A program made the translations under genes and the position numbers. A stretch of DNA of 41,528 nt from Escherichia phage HK633. The stretch is taken from sequence record NC_019719.1; one strand, 5' to 3'. A model generated the notes under the pieces. It was given only the letters and a program-made list of their open reading frames with translations. It had not been told where the DNA came from and did not search any database. Below, one piece after another: positions 6,736-22,013 of the stretch (the first letter of the stretch is position 1; every line of letters starts with the position of its first letter).

Positions 6736-7440
6736 ATGTCTGCACTTTATGAAAAATCGCAGCTGACGAAGATCCTTATTTCCTCCCTGCCGTCCACCAA
6801 AGAAACGATGGATTCCGCCACCTTTCTCGATCTGAGTTGCACCATCAAAGAAATTCAGTTCACTGGTGGCCAGAAGCAGGATATCGACGTAACAACACTT
6901 TGCTCTACCGAGCAGGAGAACATCAACGGCCTGCCTTCTCCGTCAGAAATCTCTCTGTCCGGCAACTTCTACAATAATCCAGCGCAGGACGCCTTGCGTG
7001 ATGCGTATGACAACGACACCACTTACGGCTTCCAGATCATCTTCCCGTCAGGTAATGGTTTTAAGTTCCTGGCCGAAGTTCGCCAGCATACCTGGTCATC
7101 TGGTACCAATGGTGTTGTGGCAGCTACATTCTCACTGCGCCTTAAAGGCAAGCCTGTCCCGATTGACTCTGTACTTAAACTGACCACTGATCTTCCTTCC
7201 TCACTGTCTGTAGCGGTGGGGGCTGCGATCAGCATGGCTGTAGTAGCTGCCGGTGGTAAGCCTCCGTATGCCTACACCTGGAAGAAGGCAGGTAGCACCG
7301 TCAGCGGGCAGACATCCGATACCTTTAATAAAGCCACCGCAGTTTCAGGTGATGCAGGTGATTACACCTGTGTGGTTACGGATTCTTCTTCTCCGGTCAA
7401 AACGGTTACCTCAGCTGCCTGCACCCTTACTATCAGTTAA
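6736..7440 (+). CDS. Major tail protein with C-terminal Ig-like domain
   Basis: GGAG RBS; 234 aa; C-terminal ~80 aa resembles Big_2/Ig-like decoration domain as in lambda gpV. Confidence 0.8.
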   Translation: MSALYEKSQLTKILISSLPSTKETMDSATFLDLSCTIKEIQFTGGQKQDIDVTTLCSTEQENINGLPSPSEISLSGNFYNNPAQDALRDAYDNDTTYGFQIIFPSGNGFKFLAEVRQHTWSSGTNGVVAATFSLRLKGKPVPIDSVLKLTTDLPSSLSVAVGAAISMAVVAAGGKPPYAYTWKKAGSTVSGQTSDTFNKATAVSGDAGDYTCVVTDSSSPVKTVTSAACTLTIS

Positions 7441-7474
7441 TGGAGATGCCGGGTTGTCCCGGCATGGATAAGCG

Positions 7475-7861
7475 ATGTCGCAAACTTTAAAACAATTAGC
7501 CATGGCGAAAATGGCTGGCTTTCGCCATAAGACGGTCGTTGTCCCTGAGTGGGAAGGTGTCAAAGTGGTTCTCCGTGAGCCGTCAGGTGAAGCCTGGCTG
7601 CGCTGGCAGGAGGTGGTGAAAGGGGGGGCCGACGATGAAAATGTGTCGGTATCGGAAAAGGCGCACCGTAATCTTTGCGCTGACGTGGTGCTCTTCATTG
7701 ACGTTCTGTGTGACACCGATAAGCAACCGGTATTCAGCGTAGACGAAGAAGAGCAGGTGCGTGAAATCTACGGGCCCGTGCACTCACGTCTGCTCAAACA
7801 GGCGCTTGACCTGATCAACAATGCGGACGAAGCGCGGGAAAAGTCTCAACCCCCGGCGTAA
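7475..7861 (+). CDS. Tail assembly chaperone (gpG-like)
   Basis: 128 aa between major tail and tape measure; the -1 frame is open from 7810 into the next ORF. Confidence 0.75.
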   Translation: MSQTLKQLAMAKMAGFRHKTVVVPEWEGVKVVLREPSGEAWLRWQEVVKGGADDENVSVSEKAHRNLCADVVLFIDVLCDTDKQPVFSVDEEEQVREIYGPVHSRLLKQALDLINNADEAREKSQPPA

Positions 7862-8148
7862 AGTTTCTGATGTCGCTTGCGCTCCGGATGGGGCGCACGC
7901 TCTCAGAGCTTCGGCAGAATATGACGGCAAGCGAGCTTCTGATGTGGATTGAGTACGACAGGCAAAGCCCGGTTGGCGATATTCGCGGTGATATCCATGC
8001 AGCGCAGATTGTCTCTGCCATCTACGGCTCGCAGGGGGCAAAAGTACCGCTGGACGATGCGATCCTGCGCTGGGGTGGTGATGAGCAATCAGAACCGAAG
8101 GACCCGTTTGCAGGGCTTGAGGCGGCACTTACAGCTGCGACACAATAA
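7810..8148 (+). CDS. Tail assembly chaperone T-frame segment (expected G-T fusion via programmed -1 frameshift)
   Basis: -1 frame relative to G is open from 7810; G-rich/A-run GGGAAAAG at 7836-7843 and C5 run at 7850-7854 lie in the overlap; conserved G/GT arrangement in long-tailed phages. Confidence 0.6.
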   Translation, partial: PDQQCGRSAGKVSTPGVKFLMSLALRMGRTLSELRQNMTASELLMWIEYDRQSPVGDIRGDIHAAQIVSAIYGSQGAKVPLDDAILRWGGDEQSEPKDPFAGLEAALTAATQ

Positions 8149-8205
8149 TTGCTTCACATGCCTTCAATGTAGCGATACGCTCTTTCCTTAAGTAAAGGAG
8201 GCGTT

Positions 8206-8394
8206 ATGGAACCACTGGTAGTAGTGTTTGGAATATTCGGCTGGCTGATAAATCTAATTGTGATTTTTTATTTATTACGGTTTAGCACAAGGGCAAATGA
8301 ACAAGTTGAAGCCCTTAAAGAGATAAATAAAAAGCAAGATGCGCAAATAGATTTATTAATACAAGTCGCTCACCAAAGAAAAGACAGTTTATAA
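8206..8394 (+). CDS. Small inner-membrane protein, YebO / HK97 gp15-like moron
   Basis: 62 aa; AAGGAGG RBS 4 nt before ATG; N-terminal TM helix then R-x-S-x-RAN-x-QVE motif; own terminator follows; sits between G/T and tape measure as HK97 gp15 does. Confidence 0.75.
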   Translation: MEPLVVVFGIFGWLINLIVIFYLLRFSTRANEQVEALKEINKKQDAQIDLLIQVAHQRKDSL

Positions 8395-8400
8395 CTCACG

Positions 8401-8425
8401 ACCCGCTATCAAGCGGGTTTTTTTT
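8401..8425 (+). terminator. Intrinsic terminator (ACCCGCT-ATCA-AGCGGGT + T8)
   Basis: Perfect 7-bp stem, 4-nt loop, 8 T residues; ends at tape-measure start. Confidence 0.8.
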
Positions 8426-8437
8426 ATGGGTGAAAAT

Positions 8438-11400
8438 ATGGCTACGTTGCGCGAACTGATCATCAAAATATCTGCAAACTCTCAGTCATTCCAGTCTGAA
8501 ATTTCTCGTGCTTCAAGAATGGGGAATGACTATTACCGGGTAATGCAGACTGGAGGACGCCAATCGGCCGCAGCTTCGCGTGAAACTCAGCGTGCCTTGG
8601 CTGAGGTAACTAGTCAAATAAACACCGCGAAGGCCTCAGCACTGGGAATGGCTGGTGCATTTGCTGGAGCATTTGCGACTGGTCATCTTATATCGCTGGC
8701 CGATGAATGGAGCTCTGTTAATGCCAGGCTAAAGCAGGCTTCCCAGTCGTCAGATGATTTCACGGAGTCCCAGCGGGCGCTGATGGATATTAGCCAGCGA
8801 ACCGGAACCGCCTTCTCTGATAATGCGAGTCTTTTTGCGCGTTCAGCCGCTTCTATGCGTGAATATGGCTACAGTTCAGAAGAGGTTCTGAAGGTAACCG
8901 AGGCTATATCAACAGGGCTTAAGCTGTCAGGCGCAAGCGCGTCTGAAGCGAGTTCGGTAATCACGCAGTTCAGCCAGGCTCTGGCGCAGGGTGTTCTTCG
9001 AGGCGAGGAATTTAACTCCGTCAACGAAAACGGTGATCGAGTTATCCGTGCTCTTGCCGCAGGGATGGGTGTAGCTCGTAAAGATCTGAAGGCAATGGCC
9101 GATCAGGGGATGCTAACCGCAGATAAAGTTGTCCCGGCCCTGATAAGTCAACTTGGCACTATGCGTGGTGAATTTGAGGCAATGCCGCAGACCGTTTCTG
9201 CTGCCACGACGAAAGTCGAAAATGCTTTCATGGCATGGGTAGGTGGCGCTAATGAAGCCACTGGTGCGACAAGTACTCTTGTTGCCGTATTGAATACGGT
9301 TTCTGACAATATAGACACTGTGGCTACGGCTGCCGGAGCTTTGGCTGCGATAGGTGGAGCTCGCTATCTTGGAGGGATGTTTGGCGATCTTGGGAACCAG
9401 ACGGCGCAATTAATAGATGCCAGAAAGAACGAAATTGCGCTCGCAGCTGCAAGGGCTGAATCTGCTACCCAATCACAACGCAAGGCCGCCGCCGATGCTA
9501 TTGCTGCTGAGCGAGCTTACCAGCTTGCTCAGTCAGAACTTGTGCTGGCAAAGAATACTAATGCTGAGGCTACTGCCACTCAAAATGCCATATCCAAGCG
9601 CCGGGCAATGATTACAGCAAATGCGGCACTGGTACAGTCAAACAGAGCCGTTGCAGCCTCTCAGCAGGCACTTAACTCTGCAACATCAGTGCTGGGGCTT
9701 GTAAAAACTGGCGCTACGGGTCTTTTGTCGTTAGTTGGTGGTTTGCCAGGAATTTTAATGTTGGGTGCTGGGGCGTGGTACACGATGTATCAACGCCAAG
9801 AACAAGCCAGGGAATCTGCAATCCAATATGCGGACACAATCGAGCAGGTACGAGATAATCTGAAATCAATGTCTCAGACGCAGATATCCGCCAACCTTGG
9901 ACAGGCGAATATTTCACTGGATGCTCAGAATAGTGCGATTGAACAGCAGAAGCAGAAAGTTGCTGAATTATCCAATCAACTTTATAACGCAAAATTAGCA
10001 GCCAATTCTGCTTCAGAGGGGACATGGCTGTATAACGATGCGGTTGAGAAAGCCGCAGACTTTGCTTCAGAACTTGCGGTTGAAGAAGGCCGACTTGAGC
10101 AAATGCTCAATAAAAGAAAGCAAACACAACAGTTAATAAACGACATAACTGATCAGGCTATAAATAAAACAGTAGAAATGGCTGGCGCCGTAAGTTCTCT
10201 TACAGAGATGTATGACCGGCTGAACAAGGTTTCCAGACAGTCTACAGCAGTGTCCCCACCAAAATATGCAGGACCTGTACTTCCTGCGCTTGATAATAAG
10301 CAACAACAAGCTATTGAGAAAGCACAGCGACAGCTTGAGCTATCTGGCCTTCAGGGTTTGGATAAGGCTCGAAAGCAGGCAGAATTCGATGCATCTGATC
10401 TGAACCTTCCAGCTGGTTGGCGTGAGAAATATGTCAGCATGGAAGTTGAGTCTGCCAGGCAATTACAAGCAATTCGTAACTCAAGCCGCCATAAGGGTGG
10501 AAAATCCGAGGCGGAAAAAACAGCTGATACCTATGACAAGCTGATCAAGCAGCAAAAAGAGCAGATCGCTCTGCAAGGGCAGAATACCGAGCTGGCAAAG
10601 GTTAAATATCAGGTAAGCCAGGGTGAGCTTTCTACGCTAAGTCAGGCCCAGAAAGCCGAAGTTATGCGTAATGCTGCTCTCATCGATCAGGTTAAATTGC
10701 GTGAGCAACTGCGAAATTACGAAGCCAACCTTGCTGACAGTAACGACAGCGCCCGCGCAGCCAATGAAGCGCAACTGCTGGGCTACGGGCAGGGAACCAG
10801 GTTCCGTGAAAGACTTCAGGAGCAGTTCAATCTGCGTAAGGAGTTTGAGCAGAAGAATACCGATCTTCTCCGCCAGCGTCAGGCTGGTGAAATCGACGAG
10901 ACGTTCTATCAGCAGGGGCTGGCACTTAATAAGCGCTACCTCGAAGAGCGCCTGCGCGACCAGGAGGGATATTACGCAGCTTCTGATGCGCAGCGTGACG
11001 ACTGGATGACGGGACTGTCTGAGGGTTATGCGAACTGGGTGGATGAAGCGACAGATTACTCCTCCATGGCAGCTGACGGGATGAAGCAGGCAATGGGTGG
11101 GGCGGTAACTTCGATTACTGACATGCTCAATGGTAACGTCGACAGCTGGAAGGACTGGGGTGTCAGCGTACTGAAGATCATCCAGAATGTTCTGGTCAAT
11201 ATGGCTGTTGCTAACGGCGTCAGTTCAATTGGTTCTCTCTTCAGCTTTGGCGCATCTTCCGCCGCTGCCGCCAGTAGCGGTACTGCAATTCAGAACGCTG
11301 GCGCGAACTTCACCTTTAACGCGAAGGGTAATGTTTACGACTCTCCGTCCCTGAGCGCATACAGCAATGGCGTGTTTCAGACCCCTCAGCTTTTTGCTTT

Positions 11401-11704
11401 TGCCAAAGGAGCGGGTGTGTTTGCAGAGGCTGGACCTGAAGCCATTATGCCGCTTACCCGTGCTGCTGATGGTTCGCTTGGCGTTCGGGCTGTTGGCACT
11501 GGTGGTGGTCAGGCTGTATCTTCGGCTCCACAGGTTTACATCACCATCGATGGCAACGGAAATACTTCCACGCAGACTTCACCCGGCCTTGAGCAATTTG
11601 GTGCTGATGTCGGTAAATATATTGATCAGCGATATAAGCAGAACATCATGCGAGATATTCGGCCTGGCGGTGACATCTGGAACGCAATGAAAGGAACCCG
11701 ATAA
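8438..11704 (+). CDS. Tail tape measure protein
   Basis: 1088 aa from ATG 8438 (track starts at 8426 inside the terminator T-run); long Ala/Gln-rich coiled-coil region; position between G/T and gpM. Confidence 0.9.
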   Translation: MATLRELIIKISANSQSFQSEISRASRMGNDYYRVMQTGGRQSAAASRETQRALAEVTSQINTAKASALGMAGAFAGAFATGHLISLADEWSSVNARLKQASQSSDDFTESQRALMDISQRTGTAFSDNASLFARSAASMREYGYSSEEVLKVTEAISTGLKLSGASASEASSVITQFSQALAQGVLRGEEFNSVNENGDRVIRALAAGMGVARKDLKAMADQGMLTADKVVPALISQLGTMRGEFEAMPQTVSAATTKVENAFMAWVGGANEATGATSTLVAVLNTVSDNIDTVATAAGALAAIGGARYLGGMFGDLGNQTAQLIDARKNEIALAAARAESATQSQRKAAADAIAAERAYQLAQSELVLAKNTNAEATATQNAISKRRAMITANAALVQSNRAVAASQQALNSATSVLGLVKTGATGLLSLVGGLPGILMLGAGAWYTMYQRQEQARESAIQYADTIEQVRDNLKSMSQTQISANLGQANISLDAQNSAIEQQKQKVAELSNQLYNAKLAANSASEGTWLYNDAVEKAADFASELAVEEGRLEQMLNKRKQTQQLINDITDQAINKTVEMAGAVSSLTEMYDRLNKVSRQSTAVSPPKYAGPVLPALDNKQQQAIEKAQRQLELSGLQGLDKARKQAEFDASDLNLPAGWREKYVSMEVESARQLQAIRNSSRHKGGKSEAEKTADTYDKLIKQQKEQIALQGQNTELAKVKYQVSQGELSTLSQAQKAEVMRNAALIDQVKLREQLRNYEANLADSNDSARAANEAQLLGYGQGTRFRERLQEQFNLRKEFEQKNTDLLRQRQAGEIDETFYQQGLALNKRYLEERLRDQEGYYAASDAQRDDWMTGLSEGYANWVDEATDYSSMAADGMKQAMGGAVTSITDMLNGNVDSWKDWGVSVLKIIQNVLVNMAVANGVSSIGSLFSFGASSAAAASSGTAIQNAGANFTFNAKGNVYDSPSLSAYSNGVFQTPQLFAFAKGAGVFAEAGPEAIMPLTRAADGSLGVRAVGTGGGQAVSSAPQVYITIDGNGNTSTQTSPGLEQFGADVGKYIDQRYKQNIMRDIRPGGDIWNAMKGTR

Positions 11705-20831: not shown

Positions 20832-22013
20832 CTATCTGAGATATAGCAATGTTGGTTGCTCCACCTTTTCATCAACCCAATCCGCCCACCACTGCATCAT
20901 TTCTCTGCGCTTATCGAGATACTGAGCATGGTTGTAAATCCCACGCACAGATCCGCCGTTGGCATGTGCCAGTTGCACTTCAATAGCATCAGCAGGCCAT
21001 TCGTGCTCGTTCATAATCGTGCTGAATTCATGCCTGAATCCGTGACCGCTTTCCAGACCTTCATAGCCGATTTGTTTGATCACAAGCAATACCGCGTTCT
21101 CGCAGATTGGCTTCTTCTTATCGTTGCGCCCGGCAAAAACAAACTCTGATACTGGTTTAGTGATGGAGCTTAGCGTAGTGAGAAGTTCAACCACCTGGTC
21201 TGACATAGGAACAACATGAATCTTGCGTCCCTTCATCACACTGGCGTCGATAGTGATAATCCTGTTTTCAAAATCGACGTTCTTCCATTGCATGGAACGA
21301 AGCTCTTTCGTTCTTAGGGCTGTGTAGCGTAAAACTTTGGTCGCAATGAGCGATACGATGCTTCCTGAAAATGTTGCCAGTGCTTTGTTGAATGCCGGGA
21401 TCTGGTCTGCAGGAAGAAACGGGAAGTTCTTCTTGCGGTATCCCTTCATGGCGTCAGCAAGGTCAGGTGCCGGGTTATATTTAGCCCTTCCGGTGACAAT
21501 AGCGTAACGGAAAACCTCGCCGCATCTTCTGCGGGCTTTGTTGGCTCGCTCCATTGCACCGCGATCTTCAAATCTGCGGATTACTTCCAACAGTTGCATC
21601 GGCTCAATATCCTGAATCTCAAGACCGCCGATGATGGGTAAAATGTCGTCATCAAACATTTTTGCAAGTTCATTTGCATAGCCTACTGACCAGACTTGCT
21701 TCTTGTGCTCGTACCATTCCTTGTAAATGGCGCTAAAGGAATTGTTGTTAGACGAAGCCTTTTTCGCTTTTACCGGATCGATGCCAACCGAGATGTCTTT
21801 CCTCGCGGTCCATGCTTTATCCCTTGCCTCCTGCAAAGTCATAAGCGGATATTTTCCTACGGTCAGGATTTTCTCCTTACCGTCAATCTTGTAGCGAAGC
21901 TGCCATACCTTTTTCCCTGACACAGGGACAAAAAGGTACAGGCCATTACCATCGAGAAGGCGGTATGGTTTTTCTTTCGGCTTTGCTGCTTCTATCTGCT
22001 TAACGGTGAGCAT
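20832..22013 (-). CDS. int: Tyrosine integrase (P4-type)
   Basis: N-terminal AKPKEKPYRLLDGNGLYL arm-binding motif; C-terminal HxxR and RGIYNHAQY catalytic region; ATG 22013 preferred over the GTG at 22049. Confidence 0.85.
   Translation of the reverse strand: MLTVKQIEAAKPKEKPYRLLDGNGLYLFVPVSGKKVWQLRYKIDGKEKILTVGKYPLMTLQEARDKAWTARKDISVGIDPVKAKKASSNNNSFSAIYKEWYEHKKQVWSVGYANELAKMFDDDILPIIGGLEIQDIEPMQLLEVIRRFEDRGAMERANKARRRCGEVFRYAIVTGRAKYNPAPDLADAMKGYRKKNFPFLPADQIPAFNKALATFSGSIVSLIATKVLRYTALRTKELRSMQWKNVDFENRIITIDASVMKGRKIHVVPMSDQVVELLTTLSSITKPVSEFVFAGRNDKKKPICENAVLLVIKQIGYEGLESGHGFRHEFSTIMNEHEWPADAIEVQLAHANGGSVRGIYNHAQYLDKRREMMQWWADWVDEKVEQPTLLYLR

Follow-up and report, generated by a model that had tools for sequence, protein, structure and literature searches.

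A probable lambda G/GT-type -1 ribosomal frameshift in the tail assembly chaperone genes of Escherichia phage HK633

The chaperone pair and its gene neighborhood

The DNA analyzed here, referred to below as the window, is a stretch of 41,528 nucleotides from Escherichia phage HK633 (NC_019719.1). Two overlapping chaperone reading frames, G and T, sit in it between the tail tube and tape measure genes, in the order tail tube, G, T, tape measure (Table 1). The tube gene matched the PHROG 158 major tail protein family (2.2e-103), and its equivalents in the HK97 and HK75 records are labeled 'major tail subunit'. In addition to the model listed in the table, the tape measure gene was matched by Pfam Phage_HK97_TLTM (5.7e-34) and Tape_meas_lam_C (2.3e-12). 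A small moron of 189 nt is found between T and the tape measure gene, outside the frameshift cassette; its equivalent in the HK97 record carries the note 'moron product'. A terminator-like hairpin was seen at 8400-8419.

G was assigned to Pfam family PF06222, Phage_TAC_1 (1.6e-60), and its residues 1-127 matched the PDB entry 2ob9, 'Tail assembly chaperone' (E=1.1e-78); a protein identical to it has been deposited for HK75, HK106 and mEpX1. T was assigned to PF06223, Phage_tail_T (2.6e-20). Both parts are found in PHROG 14766, a fusion family of 224 positions in which G matches positions 1-127 and T positions 122-224. The PHROG search also placed the chaperone proteins in PHROGs 344 and 337, and no NCBIfam model matched G, T or the fusion.

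The G frame terminates at a TAA (7859-7861), and its zero-frame product ends in ...DEAREKSQPPA. The -1 frame is interrupted by a TGA at 7807-7809; from 7810 onwards it stays open as far as the TAA at 8146-8148, with an overlap of 52 nt between it and G. The opening of this frame at 7810, the length of the overlap and the ATG of the T frame at 7870 had all been given correctly in the original prediction. Two elements of the overlap had been proposed there as possible slip sites: GGGAAAAG at 7836-7843, which is read CGG GAA AAG in the zero frame and GCG GGA AAA GTC in the -1 frame, and a run of five C (the C5 run), read CCC CCG in the zero frame and ACC CCC GGC in the -1 frame. The peptide encoded in the -1 frame upstream of the first of these, PDQQCGRSAGK, is probably never translated in that frame, as judged from the sequences of the relatives, since the upstream limit of the open frame varies freely among them (overlaps of 10 to 160 nt) and the peptide is not conserved. 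The ATG at 7870 most likely encodes an internal methionine of a G-T fusion.

Table 1. Coordinates of the chaperone genes, their neighbors and the elements of the overlap.
Feature	Coordinates	Strand	Evidence or remark
Major tail (tube) protein gene, HK97 gp12 equivalent, C-terminal Ig-like domain; upstream neighbor of the chaperone pair	6736..7440	+	Pfam Phage_TTP_11, Phage_tail_3, Ig_3
G-type tail assembly chaperone ORF, HK97 gp13 equivalent, 128 aa	7475..7861	+	Zero-frame product
-1-frame stretch open 5' of the slip site	7810..7842	+	Upstream limit varies among relatives
Proposed slip site G_GAA_AAG	7837..7843	+	Deposited fusion junction, clade invariance, A_AAG in relatives, lambda alignment
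T part, C-terminal 101 aa of the proposed 224-aa G-T fusion, HK97 gp14 equivalent	7843..8148	+	-1 frame after the slip, VSTPGVKFLMSLALRMGR...TAATQ
C5 run, not the slip site; from -1-frame codons ACC CCC GGC (Thr-Pro-Gly)	7850..7854	+	Within the conserved linker V-x-x-P-G-x-x-F-L-M
T-frame ATG, coding for Met in the conserved F-L-M motif	7870..7872	+	Separate start in some records
Small YebO-like membrane-protein moron, HK97 gp15 equivalent, between T and the tape measure gene	8206..8394	+	Pfam YebO, 1.2e-09
Tape measure protein gene, downstream neighbor, G / G-T binding partner	8426..11704	+	Pfam TMP_3, 2.7e-58

The proposed slip site in HK97 and other relatives

To place the locus among known phages, the region 7300-8500 was compared with deposited records; it was 100% identical to HK75 and 99.8% identical to HK97 (genes 13 and 14; AF069529 / NC_002167), with no difference from the HK97 DNA at 7830-7875. 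HK97 has the same gene order; its Gp13 is one residue apart from the G of the window (KGGGDDEN in HK97, KGGADDEN in the window), and the structure of its G part is that in PDB 2ob9. The HK97 record assembles gene 14 from two joined pieces and describes it as 'translated due to a -1 frameshift', and the mEpX1 record is annotated likewise. Outside this locus the window is another lambdoid mosaic than HK97; only 50-56% of 17000-41528 is covered by the best whole-genome matches.

The deposited HK97 Gp14 (AAF31104.1 / NP_037707.1) and the HK106 fusion (AFH20700.1), which are annotators' conceptual translations, share the junction ...DEAREK/VSTPGVKFLMS..., the slash marking the change of frame. This EK/V junction places the slip on GAA AAG (7838-7843), in agreement with the tRNA-Lys slip from AAG to AAA within GGGAAAAG that had been originally predicted. 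The site is HK97's own annotated site, a point overlooked in the first reading. An exact-sequence look-up in a collection of 15 billion proteins returned AREK/VSTPGV only; fusions at CGG, at the C5 run or at GCG were not found in it. A slip one codon earlier (on CGG/GAA, yielding ...ARGKV...) was considered and rejected, as re-pairing would be impossible there, and this fusion has not been deposited.

As the original prediction had noted, and as the codon register confirms, neither candidate is a textbook X_XXY_YYZ heptamer in the zero frame. In G_GAA_AAG the A-site tRNA meets a cognate codon on moving from AAG to AAA, but the P-site change from GAA to GGA leaves a second-position mismatch. 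Some relatives have a canonical heptamer, A_AAA_AAG or G_GGA_AAG, in this place. When rarity was examined among the ORFs of the window, the motif alone was not above chance: A_AAG is found in frame at 56 of 10,872 codons, or ~0.09 expected per 17-codon overlap, and there are five in-frame copies of G_GAA_AAG, a second one lying within G itself at 7655-7661. Because these motifs are common in frame, the case rests on position and conservation. Only one of the five G_GAA_AAG copies, that in the overlap, opens a long -1 ORF (101 aa, with the Phage_tail_T domain).

Conservation was examined in 302 related loci with 70 distinct G ends, 49 of the loci coming from different bacterial species. The genome-wide locus search used a 6-sequence alignment; single-protein searches of viral contigs yielded near-identical loci only, and these were used for haplotype counts and not for diversity. 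Only one element is common to nearly all Enterobacterales relatives (~45 species), namely an A_AAG lying in frame where G ends; the zero frame there closes with N_NNA_AAG, the preceding codon being AAA, GGA, GAA, GCA or GUA. A_AAA_AAG followed by a stop is present in Evi, BP-4795, Morganella and Proteus, G_GGA_AAG in mEp390, Enterobacter and Kluyvera, A/G_GCA_AAG followed by a stop in Klebsiella, Pantoea and Erwinia, and G_GTA_AAG in Pantoea; G_GAA_AAG is that of the HK97 clade and, in a different context, of Cronobacter and Leclercia. In ~80 Klebsiella prophage loci the -1 frame is open for 10 nt only, and GCA_AAG is therefore the sole possible site there. Distant relatives in Halomonas and Pseudomonas have A_AAC in place of A_AAG, and in one distant Bordetella relative the slip site could not be placed.

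Family-wide conservation is also seen in the peptide encoded 3' of the slip, V-[ASK]-x-P-[GEL]-x-x-F-[LM]-M. Among the 89 loci (11 haplotypes) of the HK97 clade CGGGAAAAG is invariant, and at 7844-7858 five of the seven variable sites are non-synonymous in the zero frame yet synonymous in the -1 frame. The fusion of G and T by a programmed -1 frameshift, as originally proposed, is thus backed by gene order, Pfam families, the HK97 GenBank annotation and the comparative data.

Proposed mechanism and comparison with characterized sites

We infer from these data that the shift is ribosomal, and that the overlap very probably contains a programmed -1 frameshift of the lambda G/GT type in which a slip on G_GAA_AAG gives rise to a 224-aa fusion. 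Most ribosomes would translate 7475-7861 and release the 128-aa chaperone, and a small fraction would slip one base back. In this event tRNA-Lys(mnm5s2UUU) would move from AAG (7841-7843) to the cognate AAA (7840-7842), and tRNA-Glu from GAA (7838-7840) to GGA (7837-7839), with an imperfect re-pairing via a second-position G.U. The next codon would be GTC (7843-7845), and the -1 frame would be read on to 8148, with the junction ...A-R-E-K/V-S-T-P-G-V-K-F-L-M... If lambda is taken as a guide, G would coat the tape measure protein in many copies, and the rare G-T would recruit the tail tube protein through its T domain.

The lambda site, G_GGA_AAG, has been experimentally defined (Levin, Hendrix & Casjens 1993, as cited in PMC5009743). 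It has the same position, between tube gene V and tape measure gene H, with a -1 shift near the 3' end of G. Common to lambda and to the mechanism proposed for the window are a tRNA-Lys slip from AAG to AAA that needs no stimulatory structure and a zero-frame tail of 5 codons past the slip site. The two T frames both belong to PF06223 (BLASTP E=8e-6), and the lambda junction, ...GK/VFDGE..., aligns with ...K/VSTPG... in the window. There are also differences: the lambda heptamer (GCG GGA AAG) is canonical, whereas that of the window (CGG GAA AAG) leaves a P-site tRNA-Glu with a second-position mismatch after the slip, and the G proteins of lambda and the window display no BLASTP similarity.

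At the E. coli dnaX site, A_AAA_AAG, tRNA-Lys likewise steps back one base, from AAG to AAA, and the translation system is that of the same host (PMC6924986, PMC3711429). However, dnaX combines a canonical double-Lys heptamer with a Shine-Dalgarno-like sequence on its upstream side and a hairpin on its downstream side, and its efficiency is high, whereas the window has a one-Lys site and no detectable stimulator. In the Z_ZZN tetramers of the IS3 family (A_AAG), as in the window, only the A-site tRNA-Lys re-pairs cognately (Sharma et al. 2014, PMC4066793). The IS sites tested in that study depend on a strong downstream pseudoknot, with 5.6% frameshifting in its presence and about 0.15%, a level at which tetramers barely exceed background, in its absence (PMC4066793); the window is without such an element.

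The search for stimulators covered both sides of the slip site. The fold of 7844-7935 had a z of -0.49, downstream folds of 25 relatives at three window sizes gave no consistent signal when compared to shuffles, and the consensus fold of 28 diverse sequences (-0.23 kcal/mol) had 3 pairs and no covarying pair. An Rfam scan yielded no match, and no Shine-Dalgarno-like stimulator was visible by eye upstream, in 7815-7836. A stimulated signal of the dnaX or IS3/IS911 type, namely a Shine-Dalgarno-like element and/or a hairpin or pseudoknot 5-9 nt away, was thus not found. The only strong local hairpin (about 7879-7896) begins ~36 nt 3' of the slip site. As these searches brought up no RNA stimulator, the site probably functions on its own and with low efficiency, like that of lambda.

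G_GAA_AAG is a poor heptamer, offering good re-pairing for one tRNA only, and it is measurably weak: AUG GAA AAG has served as a low-slippage control with one slippable tRNA, giving mainly the zero-frame product (Peng et al. 2019, PMC6924986). This control mRNA apart, literature searches for GGAAAAG with 'tail' and for HK97 gp13/gp14 returned nothing HK97-specific. A_AAG, on the other hand, shifts more readily in E. coli than any other tetramer (PMC4066793). Two unnamed HK97-like chaperone genes displayed 6-7% frameshifting in reporters (PMC3711429), and long-tailed phages share a conserved G-T frameshift that occurs at a low level (PMC5009743). In its gene position, its -1 overlap devoid of a separate ribosome binding site, its conserved shift-prone sequence and its protein families, the locus belongs with the lambda G-T class of tail chaperone G/GT -1 frameshifts of long-tailed phages (Xu, Hendrix & Duda 2004).

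Alternative readings and implications

The same site could also function by other mechanics, with tRNA-Lys alone slipping in the P site on AAG while UCU waits in the A site; in most relatives the codon waiting there is a stop, a 'shifty stop' arrangement. The codon before AAG varies across the family and A_AAG is conserved; in most lineages a stop lies directly 3' of AAG, which would give a slow A site; and tRNA-Glu on GGA needs a second-position mismatch (PMC6924986). In the HK97 clade, however, AAG is followed by UCU or UCG, both sense codons, and not by a stop, and heptamers perform ~10-fold better than tetramers in E. coli (PMC4066793). We regard this route as possible but rather unlikely. 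As the one-tRNA and two-tRNA routes yield the same protein, they are not separable by sequence data; we infer both the choreography of the tRNAs and the efficiency of the shift from the comparisons described above.

A different explanation is that no fusion is made, and that T is translated alone from the ATG at 7870, for instance by ribosomes that terminate at the G stop 8 nt upstream and then reinitiate. The closeness of this ATG to the G stop is consistent with such a scenario, and in many records it is the start of a separate gene, among them HK75 and the NCBI prophage annotation, which names the 92-aa product 'phage tail assembly protein T'. Nevertheless, independent translation of T seems very unlikely. 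The 20 nt 5' of the ATG contain no AGGA, GGAG or GAGG; the -1-frame peptide leading from the slip to the ATG, V-x-x-P-G-x-x-F-L, is conserved family-wide; the open frame extends back to A_AAG in every case, in some by just 10 nt; and two Xenorhabdus relatives (L276 and L284) have Leu, not Met, at the position of the ATG. The homologous T of lambda is made solely as G-T, and lambda assembly depends critically on the G:GT ratio, which is about 30:1 (PMC5009743). Some free T may be produced alongside G-T.

More improbable still is a slip on the C5 run, in which tRNA-Pro would move from CCG (7853-7855) to CCC (7852-7854), or from CCC to ACC, with the fusion reading ...EKSQPP/GVKFLM... The run lies within the overlap, 5-9 nt 5' of the G stop; the tetramers C_CC.C and C_CC.U are measurably shifty with a pseudoknot, and C_CCG was 1.8- to 3.6-fold over background (PMC4066793). 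In the zero frame, however, it reads A_CCC_CCG, and the P-site re-pairing would be to ACC. It is confined to the HK97 clade, all other relatives having CCN GGN without a run, and in two haplotypes it is broken by a C>T change at 7854 (a P>L replacement in zero-frame reading but synonymous for the -1 frame), whereas GGGAAAAG is invariant. Changes at 7845, 7848 and 7854 cause S>F/C, Q>L and P>L replacements in the zero frame and are silent in the -1 frame, indicating that the stretch is already under -1-frame selection. A fusion with SQPPGV was absent from the databases. This part of the original prediction was consequently abandoned, the run being clade-specific, broken in two haplotypes and part of a stretch that is under selection in the -1 frame.

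Slippage of RNA polymerase on an A run may be practically dismissed, for although A8-A9 runs in relatives (Evi GTTAAAAAAAAG, Halomonas A9) fall within the known length range for slippage (PMC3711429) and two loci (L094 and L095) differ as A7/A8 at the DNA level, the window has only four A compared to the >7 A quoted (PMC3711429), and the Klebsiella and Pantoea relatives have AAA only.

The site described here is an already known one, the HK97 gp13/gp14 recoding event annotated in GenBank; it is real but ordinary, and the frameshift adds no new kind of biology. It does bear on annotation: HK75 and NCBI prophage records list G and a 92-aa 'protein T / DUF4035' separately, where the correct product should be the 224-aa fusion with the EK/V junction.

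For the PF06222 and PF06223 family as a whole, a more general scenario may be offered, tentatively and at somewhat less than even confidence: the selected element could be the tetramer A_AAG only, acting by a slip of tRNA-Lys alone, with a stop usually 3' of it and a drifting P-site codon, and HK97 would then use the sequence of a low-slippage control with neither an adjacent stop nor a detectable stimulator. If this is true, either a G-T:G ratio well below lambda's ~1:30 is tolerated in tail assembly, or there is an unrecognised stimulator, such as the nascent peptide, the context of the codons or the CCNGG that is conserved a few bases 3' of the site. Among them the relatives offer a ready-made range of slip-site variants in one homologous position (A_AAA_AAG, G_GGA_AAG, G_GAA_AAG, N_GCA_AAG and G_GUA_AAG), which could be used to ask how much weight P-site re-pairing carries in vivo, and how precise the G:GT ratio has to be.

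The frameshift and its annotation

The -1 frameshift joining G, the tail assembly chaperone ORF, to T, the -1-frame part downstream of it, was confirmed, with G_GAA_AAG at 7837-7843 as the slip site. The resulting fusion (G-T) is 224 aa long, with the junction ...AREK|VSTPG.... This is an already known frameshift, that of HK97 gp13/gp14, and a member of the lambda G/GT class. It was reportedly described by Juhala et al. in 2000 and also by Xu, Hendrix and Duda in 2004.

When the sequence was re-read, all frames and coordinates of the original prediction proved correct, including a G/-1 frame overlap of 52 nt. In this region the zero frame (that of G) ends GCG CGG GAA AAG TCT CAA CCC CCG GCG TAA (A R E K S Q P P A *), and the -1 frame reads GCG GGA AAA GTC TCA ACC CCC GGC GTA AAG TTT CTG ATG (A G K V S T P G V K F L M). 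Two slip points had been proposed, an AAG to AAA slip and a C5 run; as had been recognized, neither forms an X_XXY_YYZ heptamer when read in the zero frame.

Features of the chaperone region
Feature	Position	Strand	Remarks
Tail tube gene	6736-7440	+	Ig-like C-terminus; neighbour of G
G ORF, 128 aa	7475-7861	+	stop TAA 7859-7861
Open -1 frame	7810 to TAA 8146-8148	+	closed upstream by TGA 7807-7809
GGGAAAAG	7836-7843	+	
CCCCC (C5 run)	7850-7854	+	
ATG of T frame	7870	+	
YebO-like small membrane protein ORF, 62 aa	8206-8394	+	Pfam PF13974, 1.2e-09; between T and tape measure gene
Tape measure gene, 1092 aa	8426-11704	+	neighbour of chaperone pair

G matches Pfam PF06222 (Phage_TAC_1, 1.6e-60) and PDB 2ob9 ('Tail assembly chaperone', 1.1e-78), and the -1 frame matches PF06223 ('Minor tail protein T', 2.6e-20). 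Since G covers positions 1-127 and the T frame positions 122-224 of the 224 in PHROG 14766, that family is one of fusion proteins.

Over 7300-8500 the sequence shares 100% identity with phage HK75 and 99.7-99.9% with HK97, mEpX1, HK106, HK446, mEp234 and HK544. Elsewhere the window is a different lambdoid mosaic, with at most 56% of 17000-41528 covered by any one phage record. In the HK97 GenBank record gene 13 is the tail assembly chaperone and gene 14 a two-piece CDS 'translated due to a -1 frameshift'; the mEpX1 record carries the same remark, and that of HK75 lists G and T as two separate genes. Fusions were built for every conceivable slip point and looked up as exact sequences in a collection of 15 billion proteins. 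The only one deposited was ...DEAREK|VSTPGVKFLMS..., from HK106 (AFH20700.1 / YP_007151681.1), with a one-residue variant from HK97 (AAF31104.1 / NP_037707.1); fusions through CGG (ARGKV), the C5 run (SQPPGV) and GCG (SQPPAV) were absent from the collection. The deposited fusions are conceptual translations and show that annotators assigned the slip to GAA AAG. In Enterobacteriaceae prophage copies and in HK75, T is entered as a separate protein of 92 aa ('phage tail assembly protein T / DUF4035 domain-containing protein'), and only a few phage records contain the fusion; routine annotation thus mostly misses the frameshift.

Conservation of the slip site

The comparison drew on viral contigs for close relatives, on GenBank for ten diverged phages and on different bacterial species for 49 loci; in all it covered 302 related loci with 70 distinct G ends. 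Nearly all Enterobacterales relatives have an in-frame A_AAG at the G end with T in the -1 frame; in distant Halomonas and Pseudomonas relatives A_AAC replaces it, and in one distant Bordetella relative the comparison could not place the slip site. The codon preceding AAG differs between lineages: AAA in Evi, BP-4795, Morganella, Proteus, Providencia and Pectobacterium (A_AAA_AAG, then TAG or TAA directly); GGA, as in lambda's G_GGA_AAG, in mEp390, Enterobacter and Kluyvera; GAA in the HK97 clade and, in a different context (GTG GAA AAG CCG TAA), in Cronobacter and Leclercia; GCA in Klebsiella, Raoultella, Pantoea and Erwinia; and GTA in one Pantoea. About 80 Klebsiella loci have a -1 frame open for just 10 nt (TAA AGC AAA GTA), which leaves GCA_AAG as the sole place where a shift is possible. 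Past the slip site, the family shares a conserved -1-frame linker peptide, V-[ASK]-x-P-[GEL]-x-x-F-[LM]-M, and V-S-T-P-G-V-K-F-L-M of the window agrees with it from the first residue. Together with the deposited EK|V junction and the invariance of CGGGAAAAG across 89 HK97-clade loci (11 haplotypes), the conservation of A_AAG bears out the AAG to AAA candidate.

The C5 run, the second candidate, was rejected. It is confined to the HK97 clade, where it forms the linker codons ACC CCC GGC (Thr-Pro-Gly), is interrupted by 7854 C>T in 2 of the 11 haplotypes, and has no deposited SQPPGV fusion. Moreover, five of the seven variable sites in 7844-7858 alter the zero-frame amino acid (S>F or S>C at 7845, Q>L, P>L, A>G; S>L and S>W in the actual haplotypes that combine a 7845 change with one at 7846) and are silent in the -1 frame; at the remaining two sites the zero-frame residue is kept and the -1-frame replacements are conservative (S>A, V>I). 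This pattern indicates that -1-frame selection is already active directly after 7843, which is incompatible with a slip at 7850-7855.

The lambda G end reads GCG GGA AAG TGT TCG ACG GTG AGC TGA. BLASTP found no similarity between the two G proteins; the T frames align (E=8e-6) with CGKVFDGELSFALKLAREMGR paired with AGKVSTPGVKFLMSLALRMGR, which puts the lambda K|V junction at the position homologous to that of the window. Compared with lambda's GGGAAAG, the window site looks like lambda plus one extra A, in a different upstream register.

Two of 80 Evi-type loci (L094 and L095, prophages) have A7 instead of A8 at A_AAA_AAG (about 1160-1175 in these loci), placing T in the +1 frame relative to G. 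The missing A is either an indel that inactivates the slippery run or an error in sequencing the homopolymer, and the HK97 A4 version would be less prone to such length changes. Small indels upstream of an intact slip-site region terminate G early in L256 (Leclercia adecarboxylata NCTC13032) and L252 (a Klebsiella-type viral contig), likely decaying prophages or assembly errors.

Neighbouring genes

The Ig-like domain of the tube protein is in frame at residues about 150-234 (Pfam Ig_3, Ig_2 and I-set; PHROG Hoc-like matches); the tube proteins of the Morganella, Cronobacter, Proteus and mEp390 relatives are about 155 aa long and lack it. A GC-rich hairpin (GCCGGGTTGTCCCGGC, about 7446-7465) between the tube stop and the chaperone start is a 'putative terminator' in the HK97 record and a stem_loop in that of mEpX1; it has no T run, is absent from the terminator-scan output, and might keep chaperone expression below that of the tube protein. 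The YebO-like ORF, gene 15 (gp15, 'moron product') in the HK97 record, is followed by a terminator-like hairpin at 8400-8419. Klebsiella phage ST101-KPC2phi6.3, with a chaperone of just 57% identity, also has a YebO-like gene between T and the tape measure gene, which suggests that this position has been used for insertion more than once.

Mechanics of the slip and other routes to T

At G_GAA_AAG, tRNA-Lys would move from AAG to its cognate AAA, and P-site tRNA-Glu would shift from GAA to GGA, where its second position is mismatched. Peng et al. (2019) took AUG GAA AAG as a low-slippage control on which a single tRNA can slip, and obtained mostly zero-frame product (PMC6924986). The sequence does not distinguish a joint slip of both tRNAs from a slip of tRNA-Lys alone, because the protein is the same either way. 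T is unlikely to come mainly from independent translation at its ATG: no Shine-Dalgarno sequence precedes this ATG, the -1-frame peptide before it is conserved, the T frame is open back to A_AAG in every case, and two Xenorhabdus relatives have Leu in place of its Met. Transcriptional slippage is implausible on the four-A run of the window, though it might contribute on the A8-A9 runs of some relatives.

No tetramer is more shift-prone in E. coli than A_AAG, which reaches 5.6% with a pseudoknot; without a stimulator, tetramers stay near background at about 0.15% (PMC4066793). Reporters of two unnamed HK97-like chaperone genes, from a cluster selected for A-rich heptamers, gave 6-7% frameshifting (PMC3711429). 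The fold of 7844-7935 (z = -0.49) revealed no stimulator, the downstream windows of 25 relatives no consistent folding signal, and the consensus fold of 28 diverse sequences three pairs at -0.23 kcal/mol with no covariation; Rfam gave no match, and AGGA, GGAG and GAGG do not occur within 20 nt upstream. Most relatives have a stop codon directly 3' of AAG, and a slowed A site there may favour the shift; in the HK97 clade five sense codons follow instead. The heptamer lets one tRNA re-pair well and has no visible stimulator, so it probably gives a low level of G-T on its own, like the site of lambda.

The motif by itself is unremarkable: in-frame A_AAG occupies 56 of the 10,872 codons of the window (about 0.09 expected per 17-codon overlap), and in-frame G_GAA_AAG has five copies. 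An in-frame T_GAA_AAG also lies near the 3' end (codon 382 of 394) of a minus-strand 393-aa ORF (20832-22013), where a -1 slip would enter a 50-codon frame reaching past the zero-frame stop; this is probably chance. The case for the site rests on its position, its conservation and the 101-aa T-domain ORF, which just one G_GAA_AAG copy, that at 7837-7843, opens, and not on motif rarity. A second copy lies inside G at 7655-7661 (TCG GAA AAG GCG, codon 61), where the -1 frame closes after three codons; if the heptamer shifts appreciably, an equal fraction of ribosomes would abort there.
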